Assembly: GCA_900763995.1 (NCBI GenBank)
Contig: CAAFMK010000036.1
Location: forward strand, 1 to 55,588
Direction: 5' to 3'
DNA from: an uncultured Oscillospiraceae bacterium
GTDB lineage: Bacteria; Bacillota; Clostridia; Oscillospirales; Oscillospiraceae
DNA length: 55,588 nt
The notes under the pieces are model-generated. The model did not search any database. It was not told the origin of the DNA and saw only the letters and a list, made by a program, of their open reading frames with translations. Positions 10,545 to 42,058 of this stretch are shown here, in pieces. The translations under genes were made by a program, and so were the position numbers. Positions within the stretch are counted from its first letter, which is position 1. Every line of letters begins with the position of its first letter.

Positions 10545-13045
10545 AGGTACGATCCATGACCGCCACCTTTGGCAAGCTTGACCACGCCAAGCTGAAGCTG
10601 GGGGAGGGGCTCAACCTCATCTATGCCCCCAATGAGGGGGGCAAGTCCACCTGGGCCGCCTTCTTTAAGGCCATGCTCTATGGCATTGACACCCGGGATC
10701 GGGACAAAAAGGGCTATCTGGCCGATAAAAATCACTATCAGCCCTGGTCTGGCGCCCCCATGGAGGGGGAGATCCAGTTGGAGTGGCAGGGCCGGGAAAT
10801 CACCATTCGCCGCGGCCCCAGGGGAAATAACCCCTTTGGCTCCTTCTCCGCAGTGTACACTGGCACGGAGGAGCCGGTGCCCGGCCTGACCGGGGCCAAC
10901 TGCGGGGAGATGCTAACAGGTGTGGGGCTGGCTGTCTTTTCCCGCTCGGCCTTTCTGGGGGCGGACAATCTGGCCCTCACCTCCACCCCTGAGCTGGAGC
11001 GGAGAATTGCCGCTCTGGTCTCCTCCGGGGAGGAGGAGGTCTCCTTTACCCAGGTACAGGGCCGATTGAAAGAGTGGCTCAATAAGCGCCGGGTCAACAA
11101 AAGTGTGGGGGAGATCCCCCGGCTGGAGGAGGAGCTGATCCAGGTGCGCTCCCTCCTTGGCCAGCTCAATGAGATCACTGCTCAGGTCACCCAGCTAAAT
11201 GGCTCCCATGAGCAGCTGGAGCAGCAGTATCAGCAGCTGTGTGAGGAACAGCGGGCCCACCAGATCAGGGCCTGGAATCAGGTGGTACAGGAGCTTTCGG
11301 TGCTCACCGCCCAGTGTCAGCAGCTAAAAGAGGAGCGGGACAGCCTACAGCAGGATGAGGAGATCCATCACCGCCTGGCCCAGCAGGCCCTGAACCTCCG
11401 GTATGCACAGGCCAATGAGGAGCTGGAGCTGGCACAAAACCAGCTGGATGCCCTGCGCACTGAGCTGGCCCGGTTTGGCACCCTGCCTGACAGGGAGCTT
11501 TTGAAAAGGGCCCAGGGAGAGCTGCAATATCTCAAGGTGCTGGACGAGGAGATCAAGGCCGGGGAGGAAACTCTGCGCCAGGCGGACGAGCACTATGTAC
11601 AGGCCCAGATCAATGCTCAGGATGAGAATTTCTCTGGTATGTCCGCCCAGGAGGCCGCCCTCGCCGCCCAAAAAGCCACCAACGATCACACCCTCTATTT
11701 GCAGCACGCACAGCGCCAGCGCTCCAGGGCCCGTGTCTTCCCTGTGATCGGTCTGATTGCCGCTGTAGTGGGGGGGCTGATTTCCTACGCCCAGGGGGCA
11801 CCCTTTTTACTCTATCCCCTCTATATTGGACTTGGACTGTTTGGCTTGTCCATTGTGGCCACCTTTGTTGGACTGGTCCGAAAAAAGGTCTGGCTGGAGC
11901 GGGCAGCCAAGGCGCTCTCCCAATTTCATGCCCAGACCCCTGAGGAGTTGCAGGCGCTGGTTCAGGACTACACCAAGCGCTGTGACCAGTCCGACCAGGC
12001 TGCACAGCAGGCCAAGGTGGCCCGTGGTGCCCTGAACGAGCGAAAAGCCCGCCGAAACAACAGCTGGACAGATCTGATGGATTTTGTCCACACTTTTGCC
12101 CCAGAGGTGCAAAACTCCTTTGGCTGTTCTGCGGCGCTGTCCCGAGCTCTGAATCTTGAGCACGAGTTATCCACAGCCAGGGACAAAGTTGTGGAGCGCC
12201 GCCGCCGTATGGAGGATCTGGCCGCCCAGGGTGGCCAGCTGGGGGACTCCTCGGAGCTGCTCCCCACCCCCTCACGCCCGCTGGAGCGGGTGGAGCAGGA
12301 ACTGAGCCAGGTCAACGCACAGCTCCAGCAGGTGACCCAGCAGCTGGATCGGGTCAGGGGGCGGCAGGCCGCCATGAAGCAGCCTGAGGAGGGGGACGCC
12401 ACCCCACCTGTCACCCCACAAAGGACCCCGGAGCAGACTGAGCAGGCTCTTGTACAGGTGAAGGGGGAGCTGGAGCAGGTCAGCGCCCAGCTCCATCAGG
12501 CTCAGGGCAGACAGCGGGCCATGGGTGACCCCGCCGCCGTCTGTGCCCAAAAGGAGGGGCTGGAGCACGACTTAAAGCGCCGTACCCTGGAGTATGAGGC
12601 CCTGGCCCTGGCTATGGACACCATGCAGCAGTCAAACGCCCAGCTCCAGGAGCGCTTTTCCCCAGAGCTCAACCAGCTTTCAGGGCAGTATCTGGCCCGT
12701 CTGACCCAAAACAAATACCCCTCTGTCAGTCTGACACGGGATTTGGAGGGGGCGGTGCGCAGCACAGGTGACATTTTGCCCCGCAGTGCCCTCTACCTCT
12801 CCCATGGCACCGCAGATCAGCTGTATCTGGCGGCCCGGCTGGCGGTTTGCCAGCTGTGTCTGCCTGAAAAGCCCCCCATTGTGCTGGACGATGCCCTGGC
12901 CGCCTTTGATGAACAGCGGCTCACACAGGCCCTTAAGCTTCTTCGGGAACTCTCTGAGGATCAGCAGCTGCTGCTGTTCACCTGCCACAAGCGGGAGGAG
13001 CAGCTGCTGGAGGGCCAGCCCGGCGTCAGCGTGCTGTCCCTGTGA
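10541..13045 (+). CDS. SbcC/Rad50-like coiled-coil ATPase (YhaN/SbcE-type) with a central hydrophobic segment
   Basis: Walker A APNEGGKST, signature LSHGTADQ, Walker B VLDD, H-loop FTCH; long Q/E/L heptads; GTGA overlap with the nuclease gene. Confidence 0.88.
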   Translation: MKVRSMTATFGKLDHAKLKLGEGLNLIYAPNEGGKSTWAAFFKAMLYGIDTRDRDKKGYLADKNHYQPWSGAPMEGEIQLEWQGREITIRRGPRGNNPFGSFSAVYTGTEEPVPGLTGANCGEMLTGVGLAVFSRSAFLGADNLALTSTPELERRIAALVSSGEEEVSFTQVQGRLKEWLNKRRVNKSVGEIPRLEEELIQVRSLLGQLNEITAQVTQLNGSHEQLEQQYQQLCEEQRAHQIRAWNQVVQELSVLTAQCQQLKEERDSLQQDEEIHHRLAQQALNLRYAQANEELELAQNQLDALRTELARFGTLPDRELLKRAQGELQYLKVLDEEIKAGEETLRQADEHYVQAQINAQDENFSGMSAQEAALAAQKATNDHTLYLQHAQRQRSRARVFPVIGLIAAVVGGLISYAQGAPFLLYPLYIGLGLFGLSIVATFVGLVRKKVWLERAAKALSQFHAQTPEELQALVQDYTKRCDQSDQAAQQAKVARGALNERKARRNNSWTDLMDFVHTFAPEVQNSFGCSAALSRALNLEHELSTARDKVVERRRRMEDLAAQGGQLGDSSELLPTPSRPLERVEQELSQVNAQLQQVTQQLDRVRGRQAAMKQPEEGDATPPVTPQRTPEQTEQALVQVKGELEQVSAQLHQAQGRQRAMGDPAAVCAQKEGLEHDLKRRTLEYEALALAMDTMQQSNAQLQERFSPELNQLSGQYLARLTQNKYPSVSLTRDLEGAVRSTGDILPRSALYLSHGTADQLYLAARLAVCQLCLPEKPPIVLDDALAAFDEQRLTQALKLLRELSEDQQLLLFTCHKREEQLLEGQPGVSVLSL

Positions 13046-13048
13046 GAG

Positions 13049-13077
13049 TTGCATTCCAAGTATAAAATGGGTATAAT
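13049..13077 (+). promoter_or_regulatory. Sigma-A promoter of lepB
   Basis: TTGCAT-17 nt-TATAAT. Confidence 0.65.
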
Positions 13078-13118
13078 ATCATCCATAGATCACAGATCCC
13101 AAATAAGGAGGCCCTCCA

Positions 13119-13727
13119 ATGGATGAACAAAACAACCTGTCTGAGGTGGACGGGGAAACATCACCCACCCGCCCCGCAGGCAGTGAGCTATATGAATGGC
13201 TTCAGCTTCTCATGGGCTGTGTGCTGGCTGCGGTGGTGCTGTTTAACTGCTTTGCCCGGTTGACCCGAGTGGATGGCTCCTCTATGGACCCCACTTTGCA
13301 GCATGGGGAAATGATGCTGATCTGGTCTTTGGGCTACCAGCCCAAGCAGGGGGATATTGTGGTGCTCAACAAAATTGACACCGTCACCGACCAGCTGCTC
13401 CACAGCGCCGCCATTGTCAAGCGGGTGATCGCCACCGGCGGACAGACGGTGGACATCGACTACACCACCGGCACCGTCTATGTAGACGGGCTGCCCCTGA
13501 GTGAGACCTATACCAATGGGGAGATGTACCGCCCTGACCCCACCACACATCCCATGATGCAGCAGACCCACTGGGAGGTACCAGAGGACTCCATTTTCGT
13601 CATGGGGGACAACCGCAACGCCTCCACCGACAGCCGGGACGATATGGTTGGCCCTATCCACACCGACTATATTCTGGGCAAGGTGGTCTTTGCCCTGTGG
13701 CCTATGGAGAAATTTGGGTCCCTTTGA
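13119..13727 (+). CDS. lepB: Signal peptidase I
   Basis: N-terminal TM helix, GSSMDPTL, IVKRVIA, MGDNRNASTDSR. Confidence 0.95.
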   Translation: MDEQNNLSEVDGETSPTRPAGSELYEWLQLLMGCVLAAVVLFNCFARLTRVDGSSMDPTLQHGEMMLIWSLGYQPKQGDIVVLNKIDTVTDQLLHSAAIVKRVIATGGQTVDIDYTTGTVYVDGLPLSETYTNGEMYRPDPTTHPMMQQTHWEVPEDSIFVMGDNRNASTDSRDDMVGPIHTDYILGKVVFALWPMEKFGSL

Positions 13728-13808
13728 GCGGACGGTCCACAGCTCCACCCCTTTGTCCCATGTTCCTTCCCCGCCAGTCACCAGAGCTTAAAGGAGGCCT
13801 TTTTCACC

Positions 13809-14153
13809 ATGTCCAACATCGGCAACAATCGCACCCACGCCATGGATGAGCTGTTTCGCGGCATCCTGATGCTGCAGGACATTGACGAATGTTACCAGTT
13901 TTTCAGTGATCTGTTTACCATACAGGAGCTGACCGCCTTTGCCCAGCGCTTTCAGGTGGCAGAGCTTCTGGCAGATGGCAGCACCTACGAGGGCGTGAGG
14001 GAAAAGGTGCCCGCCAGCTACTCCACCATCACCCGCATCAATACTGAGCTACGGTATGGCTCGGGGGGCTATCAAATGGTGCTGGATCGACTAAAGCCCA
14101 ACAGGGAACATGATGCCCTACAGCAGTCTCTGCGCAATTTCCCCTTTATCTGA
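13809..14153 (+). CDS. YerC/YecD family TrpR-like regulator
   Basis: ECYQFFSDL.TI.EL..AQR..VA..L..G.TY..L.YG..GY pattern. Confidence 0.85.
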   Translation: MSNIGNNRTHAMDELFRGILMLQDIDECYQFFSDLFTIQELTAFAQRFQVAELLADGSTYEGVREKVPASYSTITRINTELRYGSGGYQMVLDRLKPNREHDALQQSLRNFPFI

Positions 14154-14171
14154 CCCTTTTCTATCTATTAC

Positions 14172-14213
14172 AGCACCTCTGTCAGTTTTATGTAATCTGA
14201 CAGAGGTGCTTTC
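14172..14213 (+). terminator. Hairpin/terminator after the yerC-like gene
   Basis: Perfect 14-bp inverted repeat AGCACCTCTGTCAG/CTGACAGAGGTGCT; short T-tract. Confidence 0.6.
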
Positions 14214-14243
14214 CACAATATCCAAAATAGGACAATCTTTCTC

Positions 14244-14271
14244 TTGACTTTTTGTGCGTATTGTATATAAT
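14244..14271 (+). promoter_or_regulatory. Sigma-A promoter of the M14 peptidase gene
   Basis: TTGACT-16 nt-TATAAT. Confidence 0.6.
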
Positions 14272-14349
14272 GATTATTAGTTCCAGCCGTGTCATACAGC
14301 TGGCTCAATCTGGTAAAAGAGAGAAGATAAAGGAAAGGATCTTGCTACT

Positions 14350-15831
14350 ATGAAAAAGCTTATAAAGCGTGCCCTTGGTATGATTCTCAGCACAGCTCTG
14401 GTTTGCTCCATCCTTACCCCCACCTCGTTGGCAGAGGACTCTAGCAGCCGCCCCACACGGGAGCTGCTCTCCATGGACTTCAAGCCAGAGGATCCCGCTC
14501 AGATCCCCAAGGGTCTGGAGATCGACTGGAACCACCGCTACCACTACAATGAGATCGAGGGTCAGCTGAATCGATTGGCTAAGGCCTATCCCCAGGTCAG
14601 CGACCTCTACTCCATTGGCACCTCCTGGCAGGAGCGTGACTTGTGGTGTCTGAAAATCACCAATGAGGCTGTGAGCGACTCCTATAAGACTGGTATTGGC
14701 GTATTTGCCAACATCCATGGTGGCGAGCGTGAAAGCACCTCCTCCGCTATGTATACCGCATGGTGGATGCTGCTCAACTCTAACGACCCCTATGTAAAGG
14801 CCATTTTGGACAACTACATCATCTATGTGGTGCCCATCATCAATCCCGATGGCTATGAGCAGTCCTTTGTCAATAACAACCGCCCCAACCTGCGCCCCAC
14901 CGACCGGAACGGGGATGGCATTCCCTTCAGCGACCCCTACACCGATATTGACAATGATGGCTATATCTCCACCATTTACCGGGGCAAGGCCAAGGATATG
15001 CCCTCCACCTCCATGCAGTATTTCGGCACTGAGAGCCCAGACTGGGACAAAAACGGCATTCTGGGCGATGACCCTCGTTCCAGCACCATCGACATGAACC
15101 GCACCTTTGATTTCCAGTGGAACCGCTTTGACATCGAGACCGAGGATACCCAGGTAATCGGCAACAACGCTTGGGGTTCTGCTGGCCCCGCCCCCGCCTC
15201 TGAGCCTGAGATCCGCGCCCTGCAGGACTTCATGTACAACACCCCCATGGACGCTCTGGTCTCCATCCACACTGGTATCCAGTGCGTGCTGTACCCCTGG
15301 TGCTACCGCCCCTATGATGCCAGCAACCCCAAGGATGCCGAGATCCCCTTCATGAAGGAGACCGCCGCCAAGATGGCCAAGGCATTCCAGGACACCACTG
15401 GCCGCGGCTACTACACCATGAGCTCCTATGAGGACTATCCCACCGCCGCTGAGATGATCGACTACGCCTTTGGCCGCTTCAACATCCACGCCTACACCAT
15501 CGAGGTATACCGTGGCGGCAAGTCTGAGTCTGGTGACATCTCTGAGTGTATTTGGGAGAATGAGCTGCCCCAGCCCACTTGGGTGTTCTACTCCCAGAGC
15601 AGGATCAAGGATGTGCTGCATCTGGACCCCTCCAAGCTGAAGGATGCCAATGGCAAGCCTCTGGCTGCTGATGAGGGCCTGTGGTTCTACACCAGCTCCA
15701 CTGCACAGATGGTCGACAAGGCCCCTGAGGGTCAGGACATTATGGTCAAGGGTGCACGTGACTCCATCCTCACCATGATTGAGAGTGAGCCCCACGGCCA
15801 GGGCTATCAGCGCCCCACCTATGTCAAGTAA
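14350..15831 (+). CDS. Secreted M14-family zinc carboxypeptidase
   Basis: Signal peptide (MKKLIKR..SLA), NIHGGE (HxxE), NPDG, DMNRTF, SIHTG, YTIEV. Confidence 0.88.
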   Translation: MKKLIKRALGMILSTALVCSILTPTSLAEDSSSRPTRELLSMDFKPEDPAQIPKGLEIDWNHRYHYNEIEGQLNRLAKAYPQVSDLYSIGTSWQERDLWCLKITNEAVSDSYKTGIGVFANIHGGERESTSSAMYTAWWMLLNSNDPYVKAILDNYIIYVVPIINPDGYEQSFVNNNRPNLRPTDRNGDGIPFSDPYTDIDNDGYISTIYRGKAKDMPSTSMQYFGTESPDWDKNGILGDDPRSSTIDMNRTFDFQWNRFDIETEDTQVIGNNAWGSAGPAPASEPEIRALQDFMYNTPMDALVSIHTGIQCVLYPWCYRPYDASNPKDAEIPFMKETAAKMAKAFQDTTGRGYYTMSSYEDYPTAAEMIDYAFGRFNIHAYTIEVYRGGKSESGDISECIWENELPQPTWVFYSQSRIKDVLHLDPSKLKDANGKPLAADEGLWFYTSSTAQMVDKAPEGQDIMVKGARDSILTMIESEPHGQGYQRPTYVK

Positions 15832-15857
15832 TCTCTCTTTTACAAACTGAAATTAGT

Positions 15858-15895
15858 AAAACACCCAGCTGGCAACCGCCAGCTGGGTGTTTTTT
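15858..15895. terminator. Bidirectional terminator
   Basis: AAAACACCCAGCTGGC/GCCAGCTGGGTGTTTT between convergent genes. Confidence 0.88.
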
Positions 15896-16676
15896 ACAGC
15901 TCTATTTCCATTGGTTCGTCCAGAAGGACTGGGCCGCCAATATAGGCAGATACAACTTTTCCACCCTGGCGCTCCACAGTGGCCTCTACCACCCCGGCGG
16001 GCTGTATGTACTGATGGGTCACTGTCCCATCTGGGGTAGTCTCACTTTGAGCCACTACACAGGCCAGCGAGCCGGAGCCACAGCTGCCCTCCCAGATCAT
16101 GGTATTGGAGGCAGGCACCTTGACCAGTGGGGTCATCTTGCTGGTCTCAGGCTCCAGGAAAATCACCCCATAGGCATCCAAACCAGGAATATCAGAAAAA
16201 ATTGGCTCTGCACCGTCAAAAAAATCCTGATTGGGGGTCACATTCTCCACGACAAGGTGGGCAATTCCCCCCAAATGGACTAAAGTACCCTTTGCACCGT
16301 TGATCTCCACCGCCTTTGTCCACAGGGGAAGGGGCATTTCTGACCGGGCGGTGCCCTCCTCCATATCCACATCTACCATCACTGGGTGGTCACAGCCGCT
16401 GACCTCCACCTGTATTGGCTGATTGCTGCCCTGCTGCTGGGCCAGGAGCATCCCAAAGGCCCGAGTGGCATTACCGCAGAACTCTCCTCCCGCCATTTCC
16501 ATACGGCCCTGGCTGCCCTGGGCAGGGGGACAGAGAAAGCCCACCTGCTCCACATGGAGCTCTGTCAGGGCCATGATTTTACTGGCAAGTTCAGTTCGCT
16601 GCTCTGTTGGGACGGGGGACATGACAAAAATGGTAATATTCCCCGCCGGGTTTACGCGCACCATCTTTATTTTCAT
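15894..16676 (-). CDS. DapF-fold cofactor-independent racemase, CntK-like (putative histidine racemase)
   Basis: NPAGNIT, EQVGF, MAGGEFCGNAT, VEVSGC, MTPLV, IWEGSCGSG and QPAG match the CntK pattern (NPSGNMT, EQVGF, EFCGNAT, WENSCGSG, QPGG) rather than DapF; AAGGAG RBS. Confidence 0.8.
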   Translation of the reverse strand: MKIKMVRVNPAGNITIFVMSPVPTEQRTELASKIMALTELHVEQVGFLCPPAQGSQGRMEMAGGEFCGNATRAFGMLLAQQQGSNQPIQVEVSGCDHPVMVDVDMEEGTARSEMPLPLWTKAVEINGAKGTLVHLGGIAHLVVENVTPNQDFFDGAEPIFSDIPGLDAYGVIFLEPETSKMTPLVKVPASNTMIWEGSCGSGSLACVVAQSETTPDGTVTHQYIQPAGVVEATVERQGGKVVSAYIGGPVLLDEPMEIEL

Positions 16677-16775
16677 ATCTGCTGCTCCTTTGTAAGGCAA
16701 TACCCACATCATTCAGCAAAAGAGATCTCTGGCAAGTTTGTCTGTACCGCAAATGCTGTCAGTGGGGTACTGCCT

Positions 16776-16825
16776 AAAAATGAACCCCCAGAGGAGAGGG
16801 ACGAAAGGCCCTCCCCCCTGGGGGT
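16776..16825 (-). terminator. Terminator after hutH
   Basis: Long GC hairpin at 16784-16825 followed on the minus strand by TCATTTTT. Confidence 0.65.
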
Positions 16826-16840
16826 ATTGAGGTTTAAATC

Positions 16841-18406
16841 TTACTGGAAGTCAGGCATATGCTTTCTGACGATCTCCAGCAGCTCACCGCTGCGAACCAT
16901 CTTCTCAACCTCAGCAATGTCGGGCCAGATCTCGCGGTCGACCTCGAAGAACTCGACCTTCTCGCGGACATGCTTGTACAGCTCCTCATGCAGGGGGGTG
17001 ATACCCTGACCATGGGTGTTCAGACGGCGGCGGACATCGATGGCCTGGCAGGCGGTCATCAGCTCCATTGCCAGAACAGACAAGGTGTTCTGAACAATCA
17101 TACCAGCCTTACGGCCAGCGGTGGTACCCATGGACACGATGTCCTCCTGGTTTGCGGAGGAGGGGATGGAGTCCACAGAAGCGGGGTGGGCGTACACCTT
17201 GTTCTCAGACACCATGGAAGCGGCGGCATACTGCACGATCATATAACCGGAGTTCACGCCACCCTGGGTGGTGAGGAAGGGAGTCAGGCCGTTGGAGAGA
17301 GCGGCGTTGACCATACGCTCGGTGCGGCGCTCGGAAGCGTCAGCGATCTCAGAGCAGGCGATACCCAGAGTGTCGAAGGGGATGGCCATGGGCTCACCGT
17401 GGAAGTTACCGCCGGAGATAACAGCCTCGTCCTCCAGGAACATCAGGGGGTTATCGGTCACAGCGTTCAGCTCGATCTCGACCTTATCCAGAACATAGTC
17501 CAGAGCGTCACGGACAGCACCGTGGAGCTGAGGGATGCAGCGCAGAGCGTAAGCATCCTGCACGCGGTCGTTCTGGCAGTTGTCCAGAATCTCGGAGCCC
17601 TCCAACAGCATCTTCATGTTCTTGGCGACCAGCATCTGACCCTTCTGGCCACGGACAGCGTGGATGCGGGGGTCAAAGGCGTTGCGCAGGCCGGTGAGGC
17701 CCTCGAAAGCCATGGAGCCGATCACATCGCCCAGCTGAGCTGCGCAGATGGTGTCGTACAGGGCCAGGGAGCCCACGGAGGTCATGGCGCAGGTGCCGTT
17801 GGTCAGGCCCAGGCCCTCCTTGCTCACCAGAGTGTCCAGGGTCTTGATGCCGGCCTTGGCCATAGCCTCAGCGCCGGTCATCTTCTCGCCCTTGTACATG
17901 GCCATACCCTTACCCAGCAGAGGCAGGGACATATGAGCCAGAGGCGCCAGGTCGCCGGAGGAACCCAGAGAGCCCTTCTGGGGAACCACAGGATGAACGC
18001 CCTTGTTGAGCATCTCGATCATCATCTGCACCAGGATGGGGCGCACGCCGGACACGCCCACGCACAGAGCGTTGGCACGCAGCAGCAGCATACCACGGAC
18101 TACTTCCTCGGCATAGGGATCGCCGGTAGCAGTACAGTGGCTGAGGATCAGGTTGGTGGAGAGCTGGTTGCTCATCTCAGCGCTGACGGCCACACGCTGG
18201 AAATCACCAAAGCCAGTGGTGATACCATAGGCCACACGGCCCTCCTCGGCGATCTTCTCAGCCAGAGCACGGGACTTCTTCATAGCCTCCAGAGCGGAGT
18301 CGGCCAGCTCAACAGTAGCACCATAGCGGGCTACGGCAACAAAGCTCTCCAGGGTGAGACTATGCCCATCCAGGACAATGTTCTTGATTTCTTTGGGGTT
18401 ATACAT
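16841..18406 (-). CDS. hutH: Histidine ammonia-lyase
   Basis: YGITTGFG, LILSH (His-specific SH), GSLGSSGDLAPL, KEGL, VQDAYALRC, SGGNFHG, ANQED; AAGGAG RBS. Confidence 0.93.
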   Translation of the reverse strand: MYNPKEIKNIVLDGHSLTLESFVAVARYGATVELADSALEAMKKSRALAEKIAEEGRVAYGITTGFGDFQRVAVSAEMSNQLSTNLILSHCTATGDPYAEEVVRGMLLLRANALCVGVSGVRPILVQMMIEMLNKGVHPVVPQKGSLGSSGDLAPLAHMSLPLLGKGMAMYKGEKMTGAEAMAKAGIKTLDTLVSKEGLGLTNGTCAMTSVGSLALYDTICAAQLGDVIGSMAFEGLTGLRNAFDPRIHAVRGQKGQMLVAKNMKMLLEGSEILDNCQNDRVQDAYALRCIPQLHGAVRDALDYVLDKVEIELNAVTDNPLMFLEDEAVISGGNFHGEPMAIPFDTLGIACSEIADASERRTERMVNAALSNGLTPFLTTQGGVNSGYMIVQYAAASMVSENKVYAHPASVDSIPSSANQEDIVSMGTTAGRKAGMIVQNTLSVLAMELMTACQAIDVRRRLNTHGQGITPLHEELYKHVREKVEFFEVDREIWPDIAEVEKMVRSGELLEIVRKHMPDFQ

Positions 18407-18505
18407 AACGATGAGGTCTCCTTCCTTGATTCCATCATGGGATGGCAATCGTGGTGTAAATGTGAACGCTGAACGATTCAGCTGGGAAAAACGAAATAAG
18501 TCAGA

Positions 18506-19828
18506 TTAGACAAACTGGGCAGCGATGATGGCAGCCAGCATCAGGGGGATATTGAAGTGCAGGAATGTGGGCACGCAGGTATCCCAGATGTGGTCGTGCT
18601 GACCATCGGCGTTCAGACCGGATGTGGGGCCCAGGGTCGTGTCGGAAGCGGGGGAGCCGGCATCGCCCAGAGCAGCAGCGGCAGACATCAGAATGATGGT
18701 AGCAGCGGGGGAGAAACCGATACTGTCACACATAGGCACGAACAGAACCGCCAGAACGGGAACAGTACCAAAGGAGGTACCAATGCCCATGGTGACCAGC
18801 AGGCCGATCAGAGTGATCACGACAGCTGCAATGATCTTGCTGCCGCCCATGGCGTGGATACCGGCATCAACCAGAGCCACAACACCGCCAGTGGCCTTCA
18901 TCACGCTGGCGTAGCCGCCGGCGACCAGCATCACGAATGCGATCAGGCCCATCAGCTGAACGCCGCCAGCCAGCTGGTCATCGATCTCGTTCCACTTGAT
19001 GGCACCCAGGAGGATCATCACGATCAGGCCAGTCAGAGCGGACAGAGCCAGGTCCTGGCTGAAGATCTGCACGACGACCACAACAACGATAGCCAGCAGG
19101 GTCACATAGTGACGGGTCTCCAGGGTCTCGGAAATAGCATCAGAAGCAGAGGTATCAGCCTCCAGCATCTTGTACTCACGGGGCTTGCGGTAAGAAATAA
19201 AGATAGCAATCAGCAGACCAACGAACATGGCCACAGCCAGGATCCAGTTTACGCTGGCAACATCGCTGACGGTGACGGTCATGCCGTTCTGAGTCAGGTT
19301 ATCGGCAATGATGCCCTGGAAGATCAGGCCGAAGCCGAAGGGGATGGCGATGTAGGGAGCCTTATGACCAAAAGCAAGCGTACAGGCCACAGCGCGGCGG
19401 TCCAGCTTCATCTTGTTCATCATGGCCAGCATGGGGGGGATCAGAATGGGGATGTAAGCGATGTGGATGGGGATGAGGTTCTGAGACAGGCAGGCGATCA
19501 GGCAGATCATGGCCAGCAGGATCAGCTTGTTGCCGCCGATAATCCGGGACATCTTCTTGGAGAGGATGTCAGCAAGACCAGTGGAAGCAATGGCAGTGGC
19601 AAAGGTACCAAGCAGGACATAAGCCAGAGCAGTGGTAGCGTTGCCGGAGAAGCCGCCGGTCAGCAGACCCATGATGGTGTCGCCTTCCTCAGCATAGATG
19701 GGGATACCGCCTACCAGGCCGCCCACCACACAGGCGATCAGCATAGCCAGCAGCACATTCAGCTTCAGCAAGCTGAGCACGCACAGGACTACAACTGATA
19801 TGGTTACTGGGTTAAGTAAAATTTCCAT
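18506..19828 (-). CDS. YuiF-like Na+/H+ antiporter-family amino-acid (putative histidine) transporter
   Basis: Multi-TM protein; SQNLIPIHIAYIPILIPP, LDRRAVAC, TMGIGTSFGT, GDAGSPASDTTLGPTSGLNADGQHDHIWDTC. Confidence 0.85.
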   Translation of the reverse strand: MEILLNPVTISVVVLCVLSLLKLNVLLAMLIACVVGGLVGGIPIYAEEGDTIMGLLTGGFSGNATTALAYVLLGTFATAIASTGLADILSKKMSRIIGGNKLILLAMICLIACLSQNLIPIHIAYIPILIPPMLAMMNKMKLDRRAVACTLAFGHKAPYIAIPFGFGLIFQGIIADNLTQNGMTVTVSDVASVNWILAVAMFVGLLIAIFISYRKPREYKMLEADTSASDAISETLETRHYVTLLAIVVVVVVQIFSQDLALSALTGLIVMILLGAIKWNEIDDQLAGGVQLMGLIAFVMLVAGGYASVMKATGGVVALVDAGIHAMGGSKIIAAVVITLIGLLVTMGIGTSFGTVPVLAVLFVPMCDSIGFSPAATIILMSAAAALGDAGSPASDTTLGPTSGLNADGQHDHIWDTCVPTFLHFNIPLMLAAIIAAQFV

Positions 19829-19989
19829 AAATTGTTACCCCTCTTTCTTCTTTCCTCTTACGATGACATCTTGGAATTTCAGCCGCCCCCCTGGTGCACA
19901 TTGTATCTTCTTCCATCCCAAATTGGTCTGCGCCTAAAAGAAGTTCCTTCGACACCGGGGGCCTCTGGGCCTAAATTCCGTATGAGCAT

Positions 19990-20018
19990 ATCATAGCACA
20001 GCTTTTGTATAAAATCAA
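19990..20018 (-). promoter_or_regulatory. Promoter of the transporter-hutH operon
   Basis: Minus strand TTGATT-17 nt-TATGAT with extended TG. Confidence 0.65.
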
Positions 20019-20227
20019 TAAAAACTTTCCCCATTCCAAAAACTTATTTGTGCTTCATTTCAATTTCACCCCGCTTTACCGATACTTGATTGTATCACTG
20101 TAATAGTATATGAAATCAACCTATTTTATACTATATGCTGAATAGACCCATTTTATGTTAAGTCTTATCGGAACTTCACTTTCTTTCCCGCCCATTCTCG
20201 CCCAAAAGGCCCCGGCGGGATTTTATC

Positions 20228-20257
20228 TTGAAGATAAGTGTGGGGATATGATATAAT
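20228..20257 (+). promoter_or_regulatory. Promoter of the recJ operon
   Basis: TTGAAG-18 nt-TATAAT with extended TG. Confidence 0.6.
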
Positions 20258-20323
20258 AAGGGTGTTGCCTCAGACCAATTGGGTCTGTTTTGTGATAATT
20301 TACAACTGGGGGGTGGCCCACCA

Positions 20324-22390
20324 ATGAGATATAAACACTGGCAGGTGGCATCCCCCTGCCCAGAGGGTCAGCAGGCCCTGGAGCAGGCTGGTCTGCCCCC
20401 TCTGCTGGCCAGTCTGCTGGCGGCCCGGGGAGTGACTCAGCCCGCCCAGGCCCAGCAGCTGCTGACCCCGCATATCCGCCCACTTTTAGATTCATTCCTC
20501 CTCAAGGATATGGATCGGGCCGCCGCCCGGGTGCATCTGGCTCTGGAGCGCAATGAGCATATTGCTGTATATGGGGACTATGATGTGGACGGCATCACCG
20601 CCACCTGCCTGCTCACCCAGTTTCTCCGGGGGCAGGGCGGATGGGTATCCCCCTATATTCCCTGTCGTCTGGAGGAGGGCTATGGCCTGAATGCAGAGGC
20701 CATCCAGACTCTGGCCAGTCAGGGGGTCACCCTGATCATCACTGTGGACTGCGGCATCACCGCCGTGGCGGAGGTGGAGCTGGCCAATTCCCTCGGGGTC
20801 GAGGTGGTCATCACCGATCACCACACCTGCAAGGAGGCTCTGCCCCCCGCTGTGGCCGTGGTAGACCCCCACCGGCCCGGCTGCCCCTACCCCTTTAAGG
20901 GACTGGCCGGGGTGGGCGTGGCCCTGAAGCTGGCACTGGCGGTGGCCGGCCCGGAGGGTGCCCCACAGGTACTGCGGGACTCCTGCGATCTGGCCGCCGT
21001 GGGCACTGTGGCTGATGTGATGCCTATGACAGGGGAAAACCGGGCCATTGTCAGCCTGGGGCTGCAGGCCCTCAATCCAGCCAGACGGCTGGGCCTTGCC
21101 AGCCTCATTCGTTGCTCTGGGCTGGAGGATAAGACCATCAGCTCTGTCTCAGTGGGCTACACCCTGGCCCCCCGCATCAACGCCTCTGGCCGCATGGGCC
21201 GGGCGGAGGTGGCCATGGAACTGCTTCTCACCGACGACCCCGCCAGAGCCGAGGAGCTGGCCCTGGCACTGTGTGAGCTCAACCGGGCACGCCAGGGCCT
21301 GGAGAGTGAGATCTTTCAGGAGTGTGTCCACCATCTGACCGCTGCCCCCCAGCGGGGGGCCATTGTTTTGGCCGGAGAGCACTGGCACCAGGGTGTGGTG
21401 GGTATCGTAGCCTCCCGTCTGACAGAAAAATACACCTGCCCCTGCTTTATGATCTGTCTGGATCAGGGGATGGGCAAGGGCTCCTGCCGCTCCTGGGGGG
21501 GCGTGAACCTCTTTGAGATGCTCTGCTCCTGCTCCCATCTGCTGGAGGACTTTGGAGGACACGCCCTGGCTGCCGGATTTACGGTGAAAGAGGAAAATAT
21601 TCCAGCACTGGGGCAGGCATTGCGCCAGTGTCTGATGGAAAAGGGACAGGGGGACACCCTGCCCTCTGTGTTGGATGTGGATCTTGCGGTACAGCCCCAT
21701 ATGCTCACTGTGGAGTCTGTCACCTCTCTGGATCTGCTGGAGCCCTGCGGCAATGGCAATCCCCGCCCCGTCTTTTTGCTGCGGGGGGCCCAGGTACACA
21801 CCCTGTCCCAGGTGGGCCGGGGCCGGCATTTAAAGCTGCGGCTGGAGTCCCGGGGCCGGACACTGGATGCCATCTGGTTCTCTGCTGACCAGTGTGAGGA
21901 GGGCCTTTACCCGGGATGCCGGGTGGATGTGGTCTTTTACCCTCAGATCAACGAGTTTCGGGGGGAGCGCTCCGTCCAGCTGCAGGTGGTGGATCTGCGT
22001 GTGGTACCCTCAAGGGCCCAGCTGGAGCAGGCCATCTATGATAAATTCCGTACAGGGGAGGAGCTCACCGTTCAGGAGGCAGAATTTCTTCTGCCCAGCC
22101 GGGAGGAGTTTGCCAGCCTGTGGCGGTGGCTGAAGCGGCAGTCCTCCGCTGGCACTGTGGTGGAGGATACCCCAGCCCACATCGCCCGGGCGGTCTCCCG
22201 TGCCAGCCGCCAGCGTGAAATCCCCACCCATACCATGCTGTGTCTGGAGGTCATGGAGGAGCGGGGGCTGATCCACCTGAGCCAGTGTACCAACCGCCTG
22301 CAAATCACTCTGCGGCCTGTGGAGCGCAAGGTGGATCTGGAGGCCTCTGTTATCCTAAAGCGCCTGAGAAAGGCCCTTGAACGGCCATAG
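20324..22390 (+). CDS. recJ: Single-stranded-DNA-specific exonuclease RecJ
   Basis: YGDYDVDG, TVDCG, TDHH, GTVADV, PRINA, GSCRS, GGHALAAG. Confidence 0.96.
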   Translation: MRYKHWQVASPCPEGQQALEQAGLPPLLASLLAARGVTQPAQAQQLLTPHIRPLLDSFLLKDMDRAAARVHLALERNEHIAVYGDYDVDGITATCLLTQFLRGQGGWVSPYIPCRLEEGYGLNAEAIQTLASQGVTLIITVDCGITAVAEVELANSLGVEVVITDHHTCKEALPPAVAVVDPHRPGCPYPFKGLAGVGVALKLALAVAGPEGAPQVLRDSCDLAAVGTVADVMPMTGENRAIVSLGLQALNPARRLGLASLIRCSGLEDKTISSVSVGYTLAPRINASGRMGRAEVAMELLLTDDPARAEELALALCELNRARQGLESEIFQECVHHLTAAPQRGAIVLAGEHWHQGVVGIVASRLTEKYTCPCFMICLDQGMGKGSCRSWGGVNLFEMLCSCSHLLEDFGGHALAAGFTVKEENIPALGQALRQCLMEKGQGDTLPSVLDVDLAVQPHMLTVESVTSLDLLEPCGNGNPRPVFLLRGAQVHTLSQVGRGRHLKLRLESRGRTLDAIWFSADQCEEGLYPGCRVDVVFYPQINEFRGERSVQLQVVDLRVVPSRAQLEQAIYDKFRTGEELTVQEAEFLLPSREEFASLWRWLKRQSSAGTVVEDTPAHIARAVSRASRQREIPTHTMLCLEVMEERGLIHLSQCTNRLQITLRPVERKVDLEASVILKRLRKALERP

Positions 22391-38566: not shown

Positions 38567-38816
38567 CCAAAAAGGGGGGAGGCGAGGGCCATACACAGCC
38601 TCCCTTTTACTTTTTTGAACTCAAATCTCACACATTTTTTCAAATATCTTTCTATCCCATAATACCACAATGTTCTACAATTTTGGCATGAAAAGATGCC
38701 GAGGCTGCCTTCGGCTCTTTTCGGTATCCAGTATCGGTGAAGTGCGTGATTTAGTGAAATCACCGGAGTTCTACCCTATCCACACAAAGGTTAAAAGGGA
38801 GTACACAGCTTTTTCA

Positions 38817-38845
38817 TTGCTATTTCACCCAAGGGGTGGTAAAAT
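38817..38845 (+). promoter_or_regulatory. Promoter of the cell-wall operon
   Basis: TTGCTA-17 nt-TAAAAT with extended TG. Confidence 0.65.
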
Positions 38846-39005
38846 GAAAGGAATCTATACTCTGCTGTGTATGGTGGCTGGAGCGGGGTGGGTAAACTAT
38901 CCTCACGCTGGGCTGTTTTGCCAAATCACTGCCAGATCCAGCGGACTTTTTCAAATGGGGACTTGCCTGCCCCATTCCAAACCAGAGAAAAAAGGGGGCT
39001 TTGTT

Positions 39006-40073
39006 ATGCGCAAGCTGGTGATCGACCGCTCATCCATCAAGCATAACCTGTCCATCATCAAAGACCGGGCCGGGAATGCGGCCATCTATGGTGCACTGAC
39101 GGGGGACGGCGGTGGCGCTGGTATCATCCCTCTGGCTCAACTGCTGCGGGATGAGGGCATCGGCCGCTTTACCGTATCCGATATTCAGGAGGCCAAGCAG
39201 CTGCGGCAGGCCGGATTTGTGGAGGAGGAGATCCTCATGCTCCGGGCCACCACCGACCGCAGCGAGCTGGAGCAGCTGGTGGATCTGAATGTGGTGTGCA
39301 CCATCTCCTCTGTGGACACAGGCATGGCCCTCAACGCGCTGGCAGAAAACCGCTCCACCGTGGTAGAGGCCCACATTCAGGTGGACACCGGTATGGGCTT
39401 TGGGGGTTTTCTGGTCAGTGAGCCGGAAAAGCTGCTGCTGGCCTACCGCTCTTTGCCCAATGTGGCCCTGTCCGGCATATATACCCAGCTCCACACCGAC
39501 CAGTCCAACAGCTCCGGCTCCGCCCACCAGCTGGCGCAGTTTGAGCAGGTGCTAGAGGTGATCCGCACCGCCGGGTTTGAAACTGGAACAGTCCATGCCG
39601 CCGGCTCCTTCGCCCTGCTCCACAACGACGGGGCCATTCTGGATGCCGTCCGGGCGGGCTCTGCCATTTTAGGGCGGTGCCGCCGCACCAAGGACGACAG
39701 GCTCCGGGTGGTGGGCTATGGACAGGCCCCCCTGACCGAAGTGCGCTGGCTGCCCAAGGGGCACAGTGTGGGCACTGAGCGGCCCGTTATTCTCAAGCGG
39801 CCCACCCGGGTGGCGGTACTCCCTGTGGGGTACCAGAACGGCTATGGGGTCACCCGGCCCCAGCCGGAAACCTTCTTTGCGGCCTTTCGGGGCTGGAAGC
39901 AGTCCCGCCGCCGCACTGTGCGCATTGGCGACCAGCGGGCCAAACTTCTGGGGGCCATCGGCACCACAGAGACTATTTTGGATGTGACCAACCTGAAATG
40001 CTCCACCGGAGATCTGGCCATCTTTGAATTAGATCCCCTGTTTGCCAAAGGCTTTACCTTGGAATACCGATAA
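39006..40073 (+). CDS. Alanine-racemase-fold protein lacking the catalytic Lys and Tyr
   Basis: HNL, EA..LR.AG, HIQVDTGMG, VRAGSA and PVGY..G show the Alr fold; GALTGDGGGAG replaces AVVKANAYGHG; VGTE replaces VGYG. Confidence 0.8.
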   Translation: MRKLVIDRSSIKHNLSIIKDRAGNAAIYGALTGDGGGAGIIPLAQLLRDEGIGRFTVSDIQEAKQLRQAGFVEEEILMLRATTDRSELEQLVDLNVVCTISSVDTGMALNALAENRSTVVEAHIQVDTGMGFGGFLVSEPEKLLLAYRSLPNVALSGIYTQLHTDQSNSSGSAHQLAQFEQVLEVIRTAGFETGTVHAAGSFALLHNDGAILDAVRAGSAILGRCRRTKDDRLRVVGYGQAPLTEVRWLPKGHSVGTERPVILKRPTRVAVLPVGYQNGYGVTRPQPETFFAAFRGWKQSRRRTVRIGDQRAKLLGAIGTTETILDVTNLKCSTGDLAIFELDPLFAKGFTLEYR

Positions 40074-40091
40074 GAAAACGAGGTCTTTTCC

Positions 40092-41309
40092 ATGTCAAAT
40101 TCTCTCTCCTTCCAGCCCCTGCTCTTTGGTGGGGACATCAATGTATACAGTGTGGCCCGGGCCTTTCATGAGGCCTATGGGGTGCGCTCCATCGCCTACG
40201 GCAAGTACCCCTCCTTCCCCTGCCACGGCAGCGCCATTCTGGACTACCGGGTGTGCCCCAACAACGAGGACACCCAGGCCTTCCGCCAGAATGTGGAGAC
40301 TGTGTCCCGGGAATTTCCCGACAAAAAAGTGCTGCTGCTGGGGTGTGGAGACAGCTATGTGCAGCTTGCCGCCCACTGCAAGGACAGTTTCCCCGAAAAT
40401 GTCATCGCCCCCTACATTGATGGACAGCTGCTGGATACCCTGATCGACAAGGAGCAGTTTTATGCCCTGTGCGACCAGTACGGGGTAGACCACCCGGCCA
40501 CCTTTATCTATGATGGCTCCATGGGCCACGACTTCACCCTGCCCTGGGGCGGGCCCTACATCGCCAAGCCCGCTGACAGCGTGGCCTACTGGGACTGTGG
40601 AGACCACTCTCTGGCCAAGGTGTACATCTGCGACAGCTGGCAGGAGCTGCTGGACAGCCTTGACCATGTCTACGCCGCTGGGTATCAGGGCCACATGGTA
40701 CTACAGGAGTTCATCCCCGGGGATGACAGCTATATGCGGGTGCTCACCAACTACTCCGACCACAACGGACAGGTGAAGCTGATGTGTCTGGGCCATGTGC
40801 TGCTGGAGGAGCACTCCCCCCACGGCATTGGCAACCACGCCGTCATCATCACCGAGCACGATGAGGCGCTGGAGCAGAAGATCAAGGGCCTGCTGGAGCG
40901 CCTGCACTATGTGGGCTTTTCCAACTTCGACATCAAATATGACAGCCGGGACGGCAAGTATAAGGCCTTTGAGATCAACTGCCGCCAGGGCCGGAGCAAC
41001 TACTATGTCACCGGGGCGGGCCACAACATCGCCAAGCTGGTGGTGGAGGACTATGTACAGGGCAAAGAGCTGCCCCTTGTCATCACAAAAAACCGCTCCC
41101 TGTGGCGGATGGTTCCCAAACATGTGGCCTTTAAATTCACCCCCAAAAAGTACCATCAGGAGATGCGGGCCCTTATCCGGGCCGGGGCGGACAGCCACTC
41201 TCTGGTCTATCAGAAGGACAGCGCCCTCAAGCGCCGTCTGCGGGTGTTGAAAAACCATCTGGGCAACATCAAGCGCTTTGACCAGTACAACCGCATTCCA
41301 AAAGACTAA
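40092..41309 (+). CDS. ATP-grasp carboxylate-amine ligase, D-aspartate ligase (Asl/YxbA)-like
   Basis: GGDINVYSVARAFHEAYG, DKEQFY, KPADS, QEFIPGDD, NFDIKYD, FEINCRQGRSNYY. Confidence 0.85.
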   Translation: MSNSLSFQPLLFGGDINVYSVARAFHEAYGVRSIAYGKYPSFPCHGSAILDYRVCPNNEDTQAFRQNVETVSREFPDKKVLLLGCGDSYVQLAAHCKDSFPENVIAPYIDGQLLDTLIDKEQFYALCDQYGVDHPATFIYDGSMGHDFTLPWGGPYIAKPADSVAYWDCGDHSLAKVYICDSWQELLDSLDHVYAAGYQGHMVLQEFIPGDDSYMRVLTNYSDHNGQVKLMCLGHVLLEEHSPHGIGNHAVIITEHDEALEQKIKGLLERLHYVGFSNFDIKYDSRDGKYKAFEINCRQGRSNYYVTGAGHNIAKLVVEDYVQGKELPLVITKNRSLWRMVPKHVAFKFTPKKYHQEMRALIRAGADSHSLVYQKDSALKRRLRVLKNHLGNIKRFDQYNRIPKD

Positions 41310-41329
41310 TCCCCCACAGGAGGGCCCCT

Positions 41330-42049
41330 ATGCCAAATTACCGTCTGGGTGTGCTGGGGGGCATGGGCCCCCAGGCCACTAACACCTTTTACCAGTTTAT
41401 CCTTGACCGCACCGATGCACAGCGGGATCAGGATCACCTCAGTGCCCTGATTTTGTCCGACAGCCAGATGCCTGACCGGACTGCCGCCATTTTGGGTACC
41501 CAGCAGGAGAAACAGGCCGTCTTTGACCGTCTGCTCTCCGATGCCCGTCTGCTGGAGGGGGCTGGCTGCACAGTCATCGCCGTCCCCTGCAACACCTCCC
41601 ACTTTTTTCTTGACCAGGTACAGCAGGAAATTGGAATCCCTATCCTCCACATGATTCGGGAGACCGCCCAGCAGCTGGCCCGCCAGGGGTGCAGGCACCC
41701 GGGGATCCTGGCCACAGACGGCACCATCCGCACTGGGCTCTACCAAAAGGAATTTGCCGCTGTGGGCATTGAGGCGGTCACCCCATCCCCACAGGCTCAG
41801 GCAATGGTCATGTCCCTCATTTATGAGGACATCAAGGCCGGGCGGGATGCTGACCCACAGCAGTTTGCCGCCATCCACGCCGACCTCCTCCAGCAGGGCT
41901 GCGACTGTGGGGTGCTGGCCTGCACCGAGCTGTCCGTCTTTGGGGACAGGCACCATCTGCCCCCCTTTTACACTGACGCAATGGCGGTGCTGGCTGAACG
42001 GGCGGTGCTGTCCTGTGGAAAACCCCTGCGCCACATTTTCATGCAATAG
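41330..42049 (+). CDS. racD: Aspartate racemase (Asp/Glu racemase family)
   Basis: GVLGGMGPQAT, DQDH, PDRT, PCNTSH, LACTELS (both catalytic Cys present). Confidence 0.88.
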   Translation: MPNYRLGVLGGMGPQATNTFYQFILDRTDAQRDQDHLSALILSDSQMPDRTAAILGTQQEKQAVFDRLLSDARLLEGAGCTVIAVPCNTSHFFLDQVQQEIGIPILHMIRETAQQLARQGCRHPGILATDGTIRTGLYQKEFAAVGIEAVTPSPQAQAMVMSLIYEDIKAGRDADPQQFAAIHADLLQQGCDCGVLACTELSVFGDRHHLPPFYTDAMAVLAERAVLSCGKPLRHIFMQ

Positions 42050-42058
42050 AGGTGCGTT

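Follow-up and report, generated by a model that had tools for sequence, protein, structure and literature searches.

Two cofactor-independent histidine racemases have been characterised: CntK of Staphylococcus aureus, which is biosynthetic, and HisR of Fusobacterium nucleatum, whose role was explicitly left unassigned. Both are histidine-specific (PMC11602996). In every case cntK is found two open reading frames (ORFs) before cntM, with cntL and an Opp-type importer as neighbours (PMC7438024), and hisR of F. nucleatum is an orphan that lies close to folate (pab) genes. Here we describe a gene of the same family in a stretch of 55,588 nucleotides from an uncultured Oscillospiraceae bacterium (contig CAAFMK010000036.1 of assembly GCA_900763995.1), hereafter the window, where it is embedded in a histidine utilisation (hut) context together with genes for a YuiF-type permease and for HutH, a histidine ammonia-lyase (HAL). 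We propose, with a probability of about 0.6, that the three genes would form an accessory catabolic module of the Hut pathway, in which D- or DL-histidine is taken up, racemised to L-histidine and converted to urocanate. In the ORF list of the window the trio occupies the minus strand at 15894..16712, 16841..18448 and 18506..19828; the outer limits are exactly those under which an initial annotation of this DNA had described a co-oriented transporter, HutH and racemase.

Cofactor-independent two-cysteine enzymes are found at the entry of other degradative pathways, where 4-hydroxyproline epimerase and proline racemase rescue the 'wrong' stereoisomer. The logic proposed here is alike, although substrate and subfamily differ, and structures of hydroxyproline epimerase match the window racemase with Foldseek template modelling (TM) scores of 0.64-0.67. 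Compared with the canonical Hut pathway, the window HutH exceeds its equivalog cut-off, and the remainder of the pathway is encoded elsewhere in the genome and, in relatives, beside the racemase; the racemase and a dedicated permease paralogue are additions, as far as literature searches show. The same types of regulator, HAL and permease are clustered in the hisR2-hutH-hisT locus of Oscillibacter spp. (Ashniev et al. 2022, PMC9413887), to which that paper gives one sentence, as a possible regulator specialisation; 'racemase' occurs nowhere in its main text and four supplementary files. The name 'HisR' has two unrelated usages, for the F. nucleatum racemase and for this TrpR-family transcription factor. 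A literature search, with subscription-only papers outside it, found no description of a Hut system with a racemase or of a hut-linked histidine racemase. The initial annotation had not recognised the arrangement as a characterised pathway; this stands for the racemase linkage, but the association of hutH, permease and TrpR-family regulator had already been noted in PMC9413887.

The racemase belongs to the HisR/CntK family. It scored 117.4 bits against the NCBIfam model of Fusobacterium HisR (HisR-Fuso, NF052224; cut-off 400) and 103 bits against that of CntK (NF033599; cut-off 300), compared with 22.5 bits against the model of diaminopimelate epimerase, DapF (TIGR00652; cut-off 114.65). Because the first two scores are far below both equivalog cut-offs, the protein represents a new subfamily, a family member that is the equivalog of neither HisR nor CntK. 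When all PDB sequences were searched with phmmer, only HisR (9CR1/9CR6, E 3.5e-20) and CntK (6JIS/6JIW/6L4L, E 1.4e-18) were found, with no match to DapF up to E 1. The initial annotation had suggested comparing CntK with DapF by hidden Markov models (HMMs), and the comparison favours the former: with a family profile (A1) built from 44 diverse relatives, HisR (9CR1) scored 193 bits and CntK (6JIS) 188 bits, and the best DapF reached 31 bits. Both histidine-racemase HMMs were matched by all 44 relatives. At E ≤ 1e-3 the family comprises 2133 cluster representatives at 50% identity; it is sparse by genome, for in an even sample of the class only 6 of the 199 other genomes have a member.

The structural comparison agrees in its ranking. 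An AlphaFold2 model of the racemase (predicted local distance difference test score 96.6) has the DapF-like two-domain fold and lies nearer to HisR and CntK than to DapF. In a Foldseek search, ranks 1-9 were all CntK and HisR structures (E 1e-23 to 1e-18, TM 0.77-0.85), DapF appeared from rank 10 (E 1e-14, TM 0.66-0.73), and DapF, PhzF and hydroxyproline epimerases as a group followed CntK/HisR at TM 0.64-0.73. HisR is the best sequence and profile match (identity ~27-28%, fold TM 0.82-0.85), sharing NPAGNIT, EQVGF, GGEFCGNA and E-x-S-C-x-SG motifs and the lack of cntL/cntM partners; CntK, with the same family and fold (TM 0.85), shares the two-cysteine motifs and the proposed imidazole-binding Glu residues. 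Both cysteine motifs quoted in the initial annotation are present in the translation, as GGEFCGNATRAF and WEGSCGSGSL. Its assignment of the protein to a CntK pattern holds for the HisR/CntK family as a whole, but CntK is not a nearer relative of the racemase than F. nucleatum HisR is.

At the active site, Cys67 and Cys199 of the racemase align with the catalytic Cys67 and Cys209 of HisR within the GxEFCGN and SC(G/A)SG motifs, and N13, E43, E65, G68, N69, E196 and S201 correspond to HisR N18, E49, E65, G68, N69, E206 and S211. The catalytic-cysteine and histidine-contact roles in HisR were proposed by Lamer et al. (PMC11602996), and E46 and E208 of CntK have likewise been proposed for histidine binding; the contact roles in the published papers rest on docking and alignment, with no ligand complex. 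When the window protein was aligned with 80 relatives and with the DapF of its own genome, none of the 81 family rows deviated at the catalytic cysteines or at any proposed histidine-contact residue. The own-genome DapF has Gly, Ala, Ser and Met at the positions of E43, Q44, E65 and F66, and insertions before both cysteines. This separate, true DapF (257 bits) is encoded on contig C29 and, together with the score of the window protein against the DapF model, rules out the racemase as the DapF of this organism. We infer the histidine specificity of the racemase, as well as the D-to-L direction discussed below, from sequence; the protein is accordingly named a predicted histidine racemase, with its family established and its substrate probable.

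The middle gene is a HutH, as had been annotated. Its product scored 606.7 bits against TIGR01225 (cut-off 539.15) and 611 bits against PF00221, its best PDB match is the Pseudomonas putida HAL (1GKM, E 2.6e-112), and the HAL-specific Ser-His pair is kept in an LSH motif aligned to that of P. putida. The triad that forms the 4-methylideneimidazole-5-one (MIO) group reads SSG, versus ASG in P. putida, with Ser-Gly retained; a Ser in the first position should be compatible with MIO formation. Racemase-linked HALs of relatives follow the same LSH/SSG/GNFHGEP pattern (SH in 28 of 30 rows, readable SSG in 27). The genome encodes three HAL-family paralogues. The second, a HutH on contig C144 (13640-15199, L097) inside a hutU/hutI cluster, is 50% identical to the window HutH and has the highest TIGR01225 score (684 bits), with Ser-Asp where P. 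putida HAL, 7TQR and the window HutH show Ser-His (the His83 position). Judged by these residues, the racemase-linked HutH is the more canonical of the two, and in three of five relatives checked it is the sole copy above the equivalog cut-off.

The third paralogue (C95:6194-7720, L098) scored 484 bits, under the HutH cut-off, is followed by a sodium:solute symporter gene and lacks the MIO triad (GSVGY---ISLE, compared with GS(L/V)G(S/A)SGDL(A/C)PL in HALs). Since the PDB relatives obtained for the two HutH paralogues searched include a solved ergothionase (6S7J), L098 may be an MIO-less lyase for a histidine derivative. In a complete genome (G145) that also carries the racemase, a second HutH (L119:10227-15071) is followed by an M20 peptidase and an AbgT-family transporter, which suggests the use of histidine-containing dipeptides.

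The permease has the NhaC-type two-domain architecture (PF03553, 207.6 bits; PF13726, 79.2 bits), which at the domain level agrees with its description as YuiF-like. Two paralogues occur in the genome, one 73% identical (contig C84) and one 52% identical within the hutU/hutI cluster of C144, and 7999 relatives were obtained in a database search. In S. aureus, L-histidine is taken up mainly by a YuiF-type protein (PMC10817146), and YuiF-type permeases adjoin the racemase and/or HAL in 13 loci, plus G145. The window permease is a candidate importer of histidine, possibly including the D-enantiomer.

To follow the linkage across relatives we surveyed one genome per species, obtained at least 579 confirmed relatives and fetched the best 80 with up to 7 kb of flank. 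HAL and permease were located by tblastn, and every ORF of 100 aa or more that lay within 4.5 kb was clustered, the 67 clusters present in at least three loci being named by Pfam. HAL lies directly upstream of the racemase, on the same strand, in 33 of the 36 loci with a racemase at least 55% identical. This comprises all six loci at 65% or above, each with a hut gene, and 27 of 30 at 55-65%, among which 28 have HAL somewhere in the locus and 28 have any hut gene. At 45-55% the figures drop to 1 of 14 for HAL directly upstream and 3 for any hut gene; below 45% they are 0 of 30 (two with HAL in the locus) and 3. Among close relatives the linkage is missing in L034, an Oscillibacter valericigenes locus whose flanks are complete, and in L046, a contig of 2.6 kb. 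The hutH linkage, on whose conservation the initial annotation had made its proposal depend, is therefore kept among close relatives, and it recurs in other lineages and orders.

Two architectures were distinguished. The first, which includes the window, runs YuiF-type permease, HAL, racemase. The second runs from a 525-aa NhaC-type permease through a bPH_7 protein and HAL to the racemase, and continues with a YerC-type regulator or, in nine loci, with formate-tetrahydrofolate (formate-THF) ligase. The order HAL, racemase, formate-THF ligase occurs in nine loci, eight of which run on into FTCD_C (formimino-THF cyclodeaminase), and this places the racemase inside a catabolic operon. Frequent neighbours in relatives are formate-THF ligase, cyclodeaminase, urocanase and a YerC/HisR-type regulator. 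The bPH_7 protein (167 aa, bacterial PH domain, PF20794) was found at L035:4252-4752 and in 16 other loci, where it is conserved between the 525-aa permease and HAL; in L044 and L051 it instead immediately precedes the racemase.

Permease, HAL and racemase occur together in five gene orders, in Oscillospiraceae, other Bacillota and one Synergistota genome. Besides permease-HAL-racemase in the window, these are HAL-racemase-permease in Fretibacterium fastidiosum (Synergistota, L055), HAL-permease-racemase in L088, racemase-permease-HAL in G145, and, in L085, a racemase with permease and HAL divergent from it, plus urocanase and formate-THF ligase. On a racemase tree of the 81 family rows, from which HisR and CntK were left out, the hut-linked label (41 of 81 rows) needs at least five changes over well-supported branches and is strongly clustered, with none of 500 shuffles as low. 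A distant, fully supported clade (L079, L081, L082 and L085) adjoins the STAND-type regulator type that heads the hutU cluster of the window's own genome.

That genome (~90% complete) carries on contig C144 a formiminotransferase, a cyclodeaminase, a BTAD-AAA16 regulator, hutU, hutI, a second YuiF-type permease and the second HutH. Because the remainder of the pathway thus has its own permease and HutH, the window pair is paralogous, with the racemase added. In the even sample of the class, hutH was detected in 4 of 6 racemase-positive and 17 of 193 racemase-negative genomes (one-sided Fisher p = 0.0012; the genomes are related rather than independent, and two positives share a genus). In all five genomes whose racemase homologue is unlinked (two Blautia, Intestinibacter, Emergencia and Moryella), hutH and hutU score above cut-off.

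Table 1. Features of the window around the permease-hutH-racemase trio.
Feature	Position	Strand	Basis
Permease, YuiF-type (NhaC-family), 440 aa; candidate histidine importer	18506..19828	-	PF13726 + PF03553
HutH, histidine ammonia-lyase, 521 aa	16841..18406 (ORF to TTG 18448)	-	TIGR01225, PF00221
Two-cysteine racemase, HisR/CntK family, 260 aa (P0004); predicted histidine racemase	15894..16676	-	profile, PDB and fold matches
Hairpin + T-run in hutH-racemase spacer	16784..16825	-	stem and folding energy
YerC/YecD (TrpR-family) regulator; candidate local regulator	13809..14153	+	TIGR02531
Candidate control region 5' of permease: sigma-70-like promoter match + 8-bp inverted repeat	19990..20134	-	

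The start of the racemase was refined to an ATG that AAAGGAG precedes by 8 nt; close homologues, like the database protein identical to it, are all 256-268 aa long. The likely start of HutH is the ATG that follows AAGGAAGGAG. Between the two genes is a spacer of 164 nt (16677-16840), with a hairpin of 17 bp (dG -37.5 kcal/mol, z -4.61, none of 200 shuffles as stable) followed by the T-run, and also a promoter-like site. The hairpin may be a terminator, an attenuator or an mRNA-processing element, so that co-orientation in the window does not prove a single transcript. In relatives the HAL-racemase spacer is 3-15 nt in 11 of 29 measured loci; in the other 18 it spans 62-384 nt and folds into between one and five nearly perfect hairpins (dG as low as -173 kcal/mol), and the window belongs to this long, structured class. 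Further examples of long spacers are L035:6679-7000, L049:5649-6035 and L023:6837-7000. Such a spacer may tune the ratio of HutH to racemase protein. Rfam gave nothing credible in window 13000-21000 and nothing in the hutH-racemase spacers of nine related loci. Among the nine loci scanned, one has a THF riboswitch (L049:1-115, 61.4 bits, gathering score 36), upstream of a hut locus with formate-THF ligase.

In the 450-nt region 5' of the permease, a sigma-70-like TTGATT-17-TATGAT at 20018..19990 agrees with the consensus at 9 of 12 positions, a consensus match only, and a perfect 8-bp inverted repeat, ATAGTATA-N16-TATACTAT, at 20103-20134 is a possible operator. In sequencing runs, at most 0.18 of the sampled words occurred in any one run. 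A DNA run labelled canine gut metagenome gave contigs of 210-344 nt, with 2-10 differing letters each, that cover all three genes, and two metatranscriptome runs, seen as assembled contigs only, gave hutH-like contigs of ~91-97% identity that probably come from relatives.

The TrpR-family gene near the trio encodes a YerC/YecD protein (TIGR02531, 104.6 bits; cut-off 42.2), one of three copies in the genome, and the family neighbours the racemase in 19 of the 36 loci with a racemase at least 55% identical. Ashniev et al. named this family HisR and describe L-histidine-dependent DNA binding and a histidine-dependent repressor (PMC9413887). No site in the window fits their 20-bp palindromic operator consensus, either exactly or when up to 3 mismatches are allowed. 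A looser scan gave 10/14 matches at 20083, 5' of the permease, and at 14246, too weak to count; they are no evidence because the intergenic composition is AT-rich. A STAND-type regulator (BTAD + AAA_16 + TPR), found at C144:5197-8055, in L079, L081, L082 and L085, and at L119:15420-17993, recurs beside hut genes and beside distant racemase homologues, and is a candidate hut activator in Clostridia.

In the accessory catabolic module that we propose, the YuiF-type permease would import histidine, perhaps including the D-enantiomer, and the racemase would interconvert D- and L-histidine, its two cysteines abstracting and returning the alpha-proton without a cofactor. HutH would then deaminate the L-form irreversibly to urocanate, pulling the racemase equilibrium; because L-histidine is removed irreversibly, D-histidine would be drained into the pathway with a net flux from D to L. 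Urocanate would pass on through hutU, hutI, formiminotransferase and cyclodeaminase, which lie on another contig here and beside the racemase in relatives, together with formate-THF ligase. Control of the module probably lies with the neighbouring histidine-sensing regulator of the YerC/HisR type. The catabolic interpretation put forward in the initial annotation is backed by the comparative tests of family and linkage, with the D-to-L direction still deduced. A more specific scheme is a dedicated D-histidine route in gut and oral anaerobes, combining a specialised YuiF-type permease, a hut-embedded racemase, HutH, ATP from formate-THF ligase and a switch by a YerC/HisR-repressor paralogue; this we put forward tentatively, at a little less than an even chance.

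Several observations weigh against the catabolic module. The racemase is only ~24-28% identical to HisR and CntK. Linkage to hut genes is rare among distant family members, and the family as a whole therefore has other contexts, such as MatE, Na:alanine symporter or polar amino-acid ABC transporter genes, which distant members adjoin. Two of the six racemase-positive genomes are without a detected hutH (one 85% complete, the other with 8% contamination). Co-transcription of hutH and racemase in the window is uncertain, given the terminator-like hairpin, and the direction of flux cannot be read from sequence. D-histidine is not known as an abundant gut nutrient. Finally, D-histidine failed to rescue the growth lag of an F. 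nucleatum hisR mutant (PMC11602996).

That last result, together with the unassigned role of HisR, is also what lends some weight to a histidine racemase running from L to D, which would supply D-histidine for a product, a signal or export through the permease, with HutH adjacent merely through a common histidine pool and regulator. CntK, the only histidine racemase with a known role, is biosynthetic (PMC7438024), and the window racemase may have its own promoter behind the terminator-like hairpin. We nevertheless consider this direction improbable. Pfam scans of the window ORFs found neither NAS (CntL) nor Staph_opine_DH (CntM), nor a metal ABC importer near the locus, as the initial annotation had observed, so that the partners that accompany cntK are missing here. 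Genome-wide, PF03059 (NAS) had no match in this ~90% complete genome (the control was positive in 1 of 14 genomes), and PF10100 (CntM) had none either, yet its controls were silent everywhere, which makes that search uninformative. No D-histidine-consuming biosynthetic gene was seen in the 81 neighbourhoods, window included, and neither NAS nor opine dehydrogenase is among the 67 recurrent ORF clusters. Many relatives, moreover, place the racemase between HAL and formate-THF ligase/FTCD_C, in one orientation and with a 3-nt spacer to HAL, and a co-expressed HAL would deplete the substrate of a biosynthetic racemase.

The low identity to characterised enzymes, the unmet equivalog thresholds and the fact that most distant members are not hut-linked could also mean that the racemase has another main substrate, either a histidine derivative, for example a methylated or thiolated one, or an amino acid unrelated to it, and would turn over histidine as a side activity at best; the three HAL-family paralogues suggest a diversified metabolism of imidazole compounds in this genome. 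Such a substrate is nonetheless unlikely, as the residues proposed to hold the imidazole and backbone of histidine do not vary across the family, the linked HAL keeps its Ser-His pair and exceeds the HutH equivalog cut-off, and HisR is reported to reject even close histidine analogues (PMC11602996). That a separately transcribed racemase lies next to hutH by chance, as the hairpin, T-run and promoter-like site between them might suggest, is very improbable given HAL directly upstream in 33 of 36 orthologous loci, the trio in five gene orders and a second phylum, and the clustering of the hut label on the tree.

The surroundings of the trio are those of an ordinary chromosome. On one flank lie recJ, relA/spoT, dtd and a gene of the metallo-beta-lactamase fold; on the other lie genes for an M14 carboxypeptidase, the TrpR-family protein, a signal peptidase and SbcCD-like proteins, and the remaining genes of the window are housekeeping. 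The M14 carboxypeptidase gene sits between the racemase and the YerC/YecD gene, convergent with the racemase; outside the window it was found at the racemase locus only in L017 and L019. Farther away, a plus-strand cluster at 38670-44419 encodes a 467-aa alanine-racemase-like protein, a 405-aa protein without a Pfam match, an Asp/Glu racemase and a 787-aa fusion of Mur-ligase domains and an amino-acid kinase domain. It looks like a D-amino-acid or peptide-ligase unit.

Taken together, the racemase represents a subfamily, new and as yet uncharacterised, within a known enzyme family, and its pathway context is new as well. A large sister subfamily built into histidine-degradation loci makes stereo-inversion at the entry of the Hut pathway a candidate role, in addition to the biosynthetic one of CntK. 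Genes now labelled 'hypothetical protein' or 'diaminopimelate epimerase' could be renamed. If the proposal is true, the textbook pathway would gain an extra step in abundant gut Oscillospiraceae, with a bearing on D-amino-acid turnover in the gut and on histidine-derived metabolites such as urocanate and imidazole propionate. Should the more specific, dedicated D-histidine route exist, the 'orphan' histidine racemases, including F. nucleatum HisR, would have a first physiological role, and D-histidine, for example from opine metallophores or racemised protein, would be a real nutrient in these habitats.

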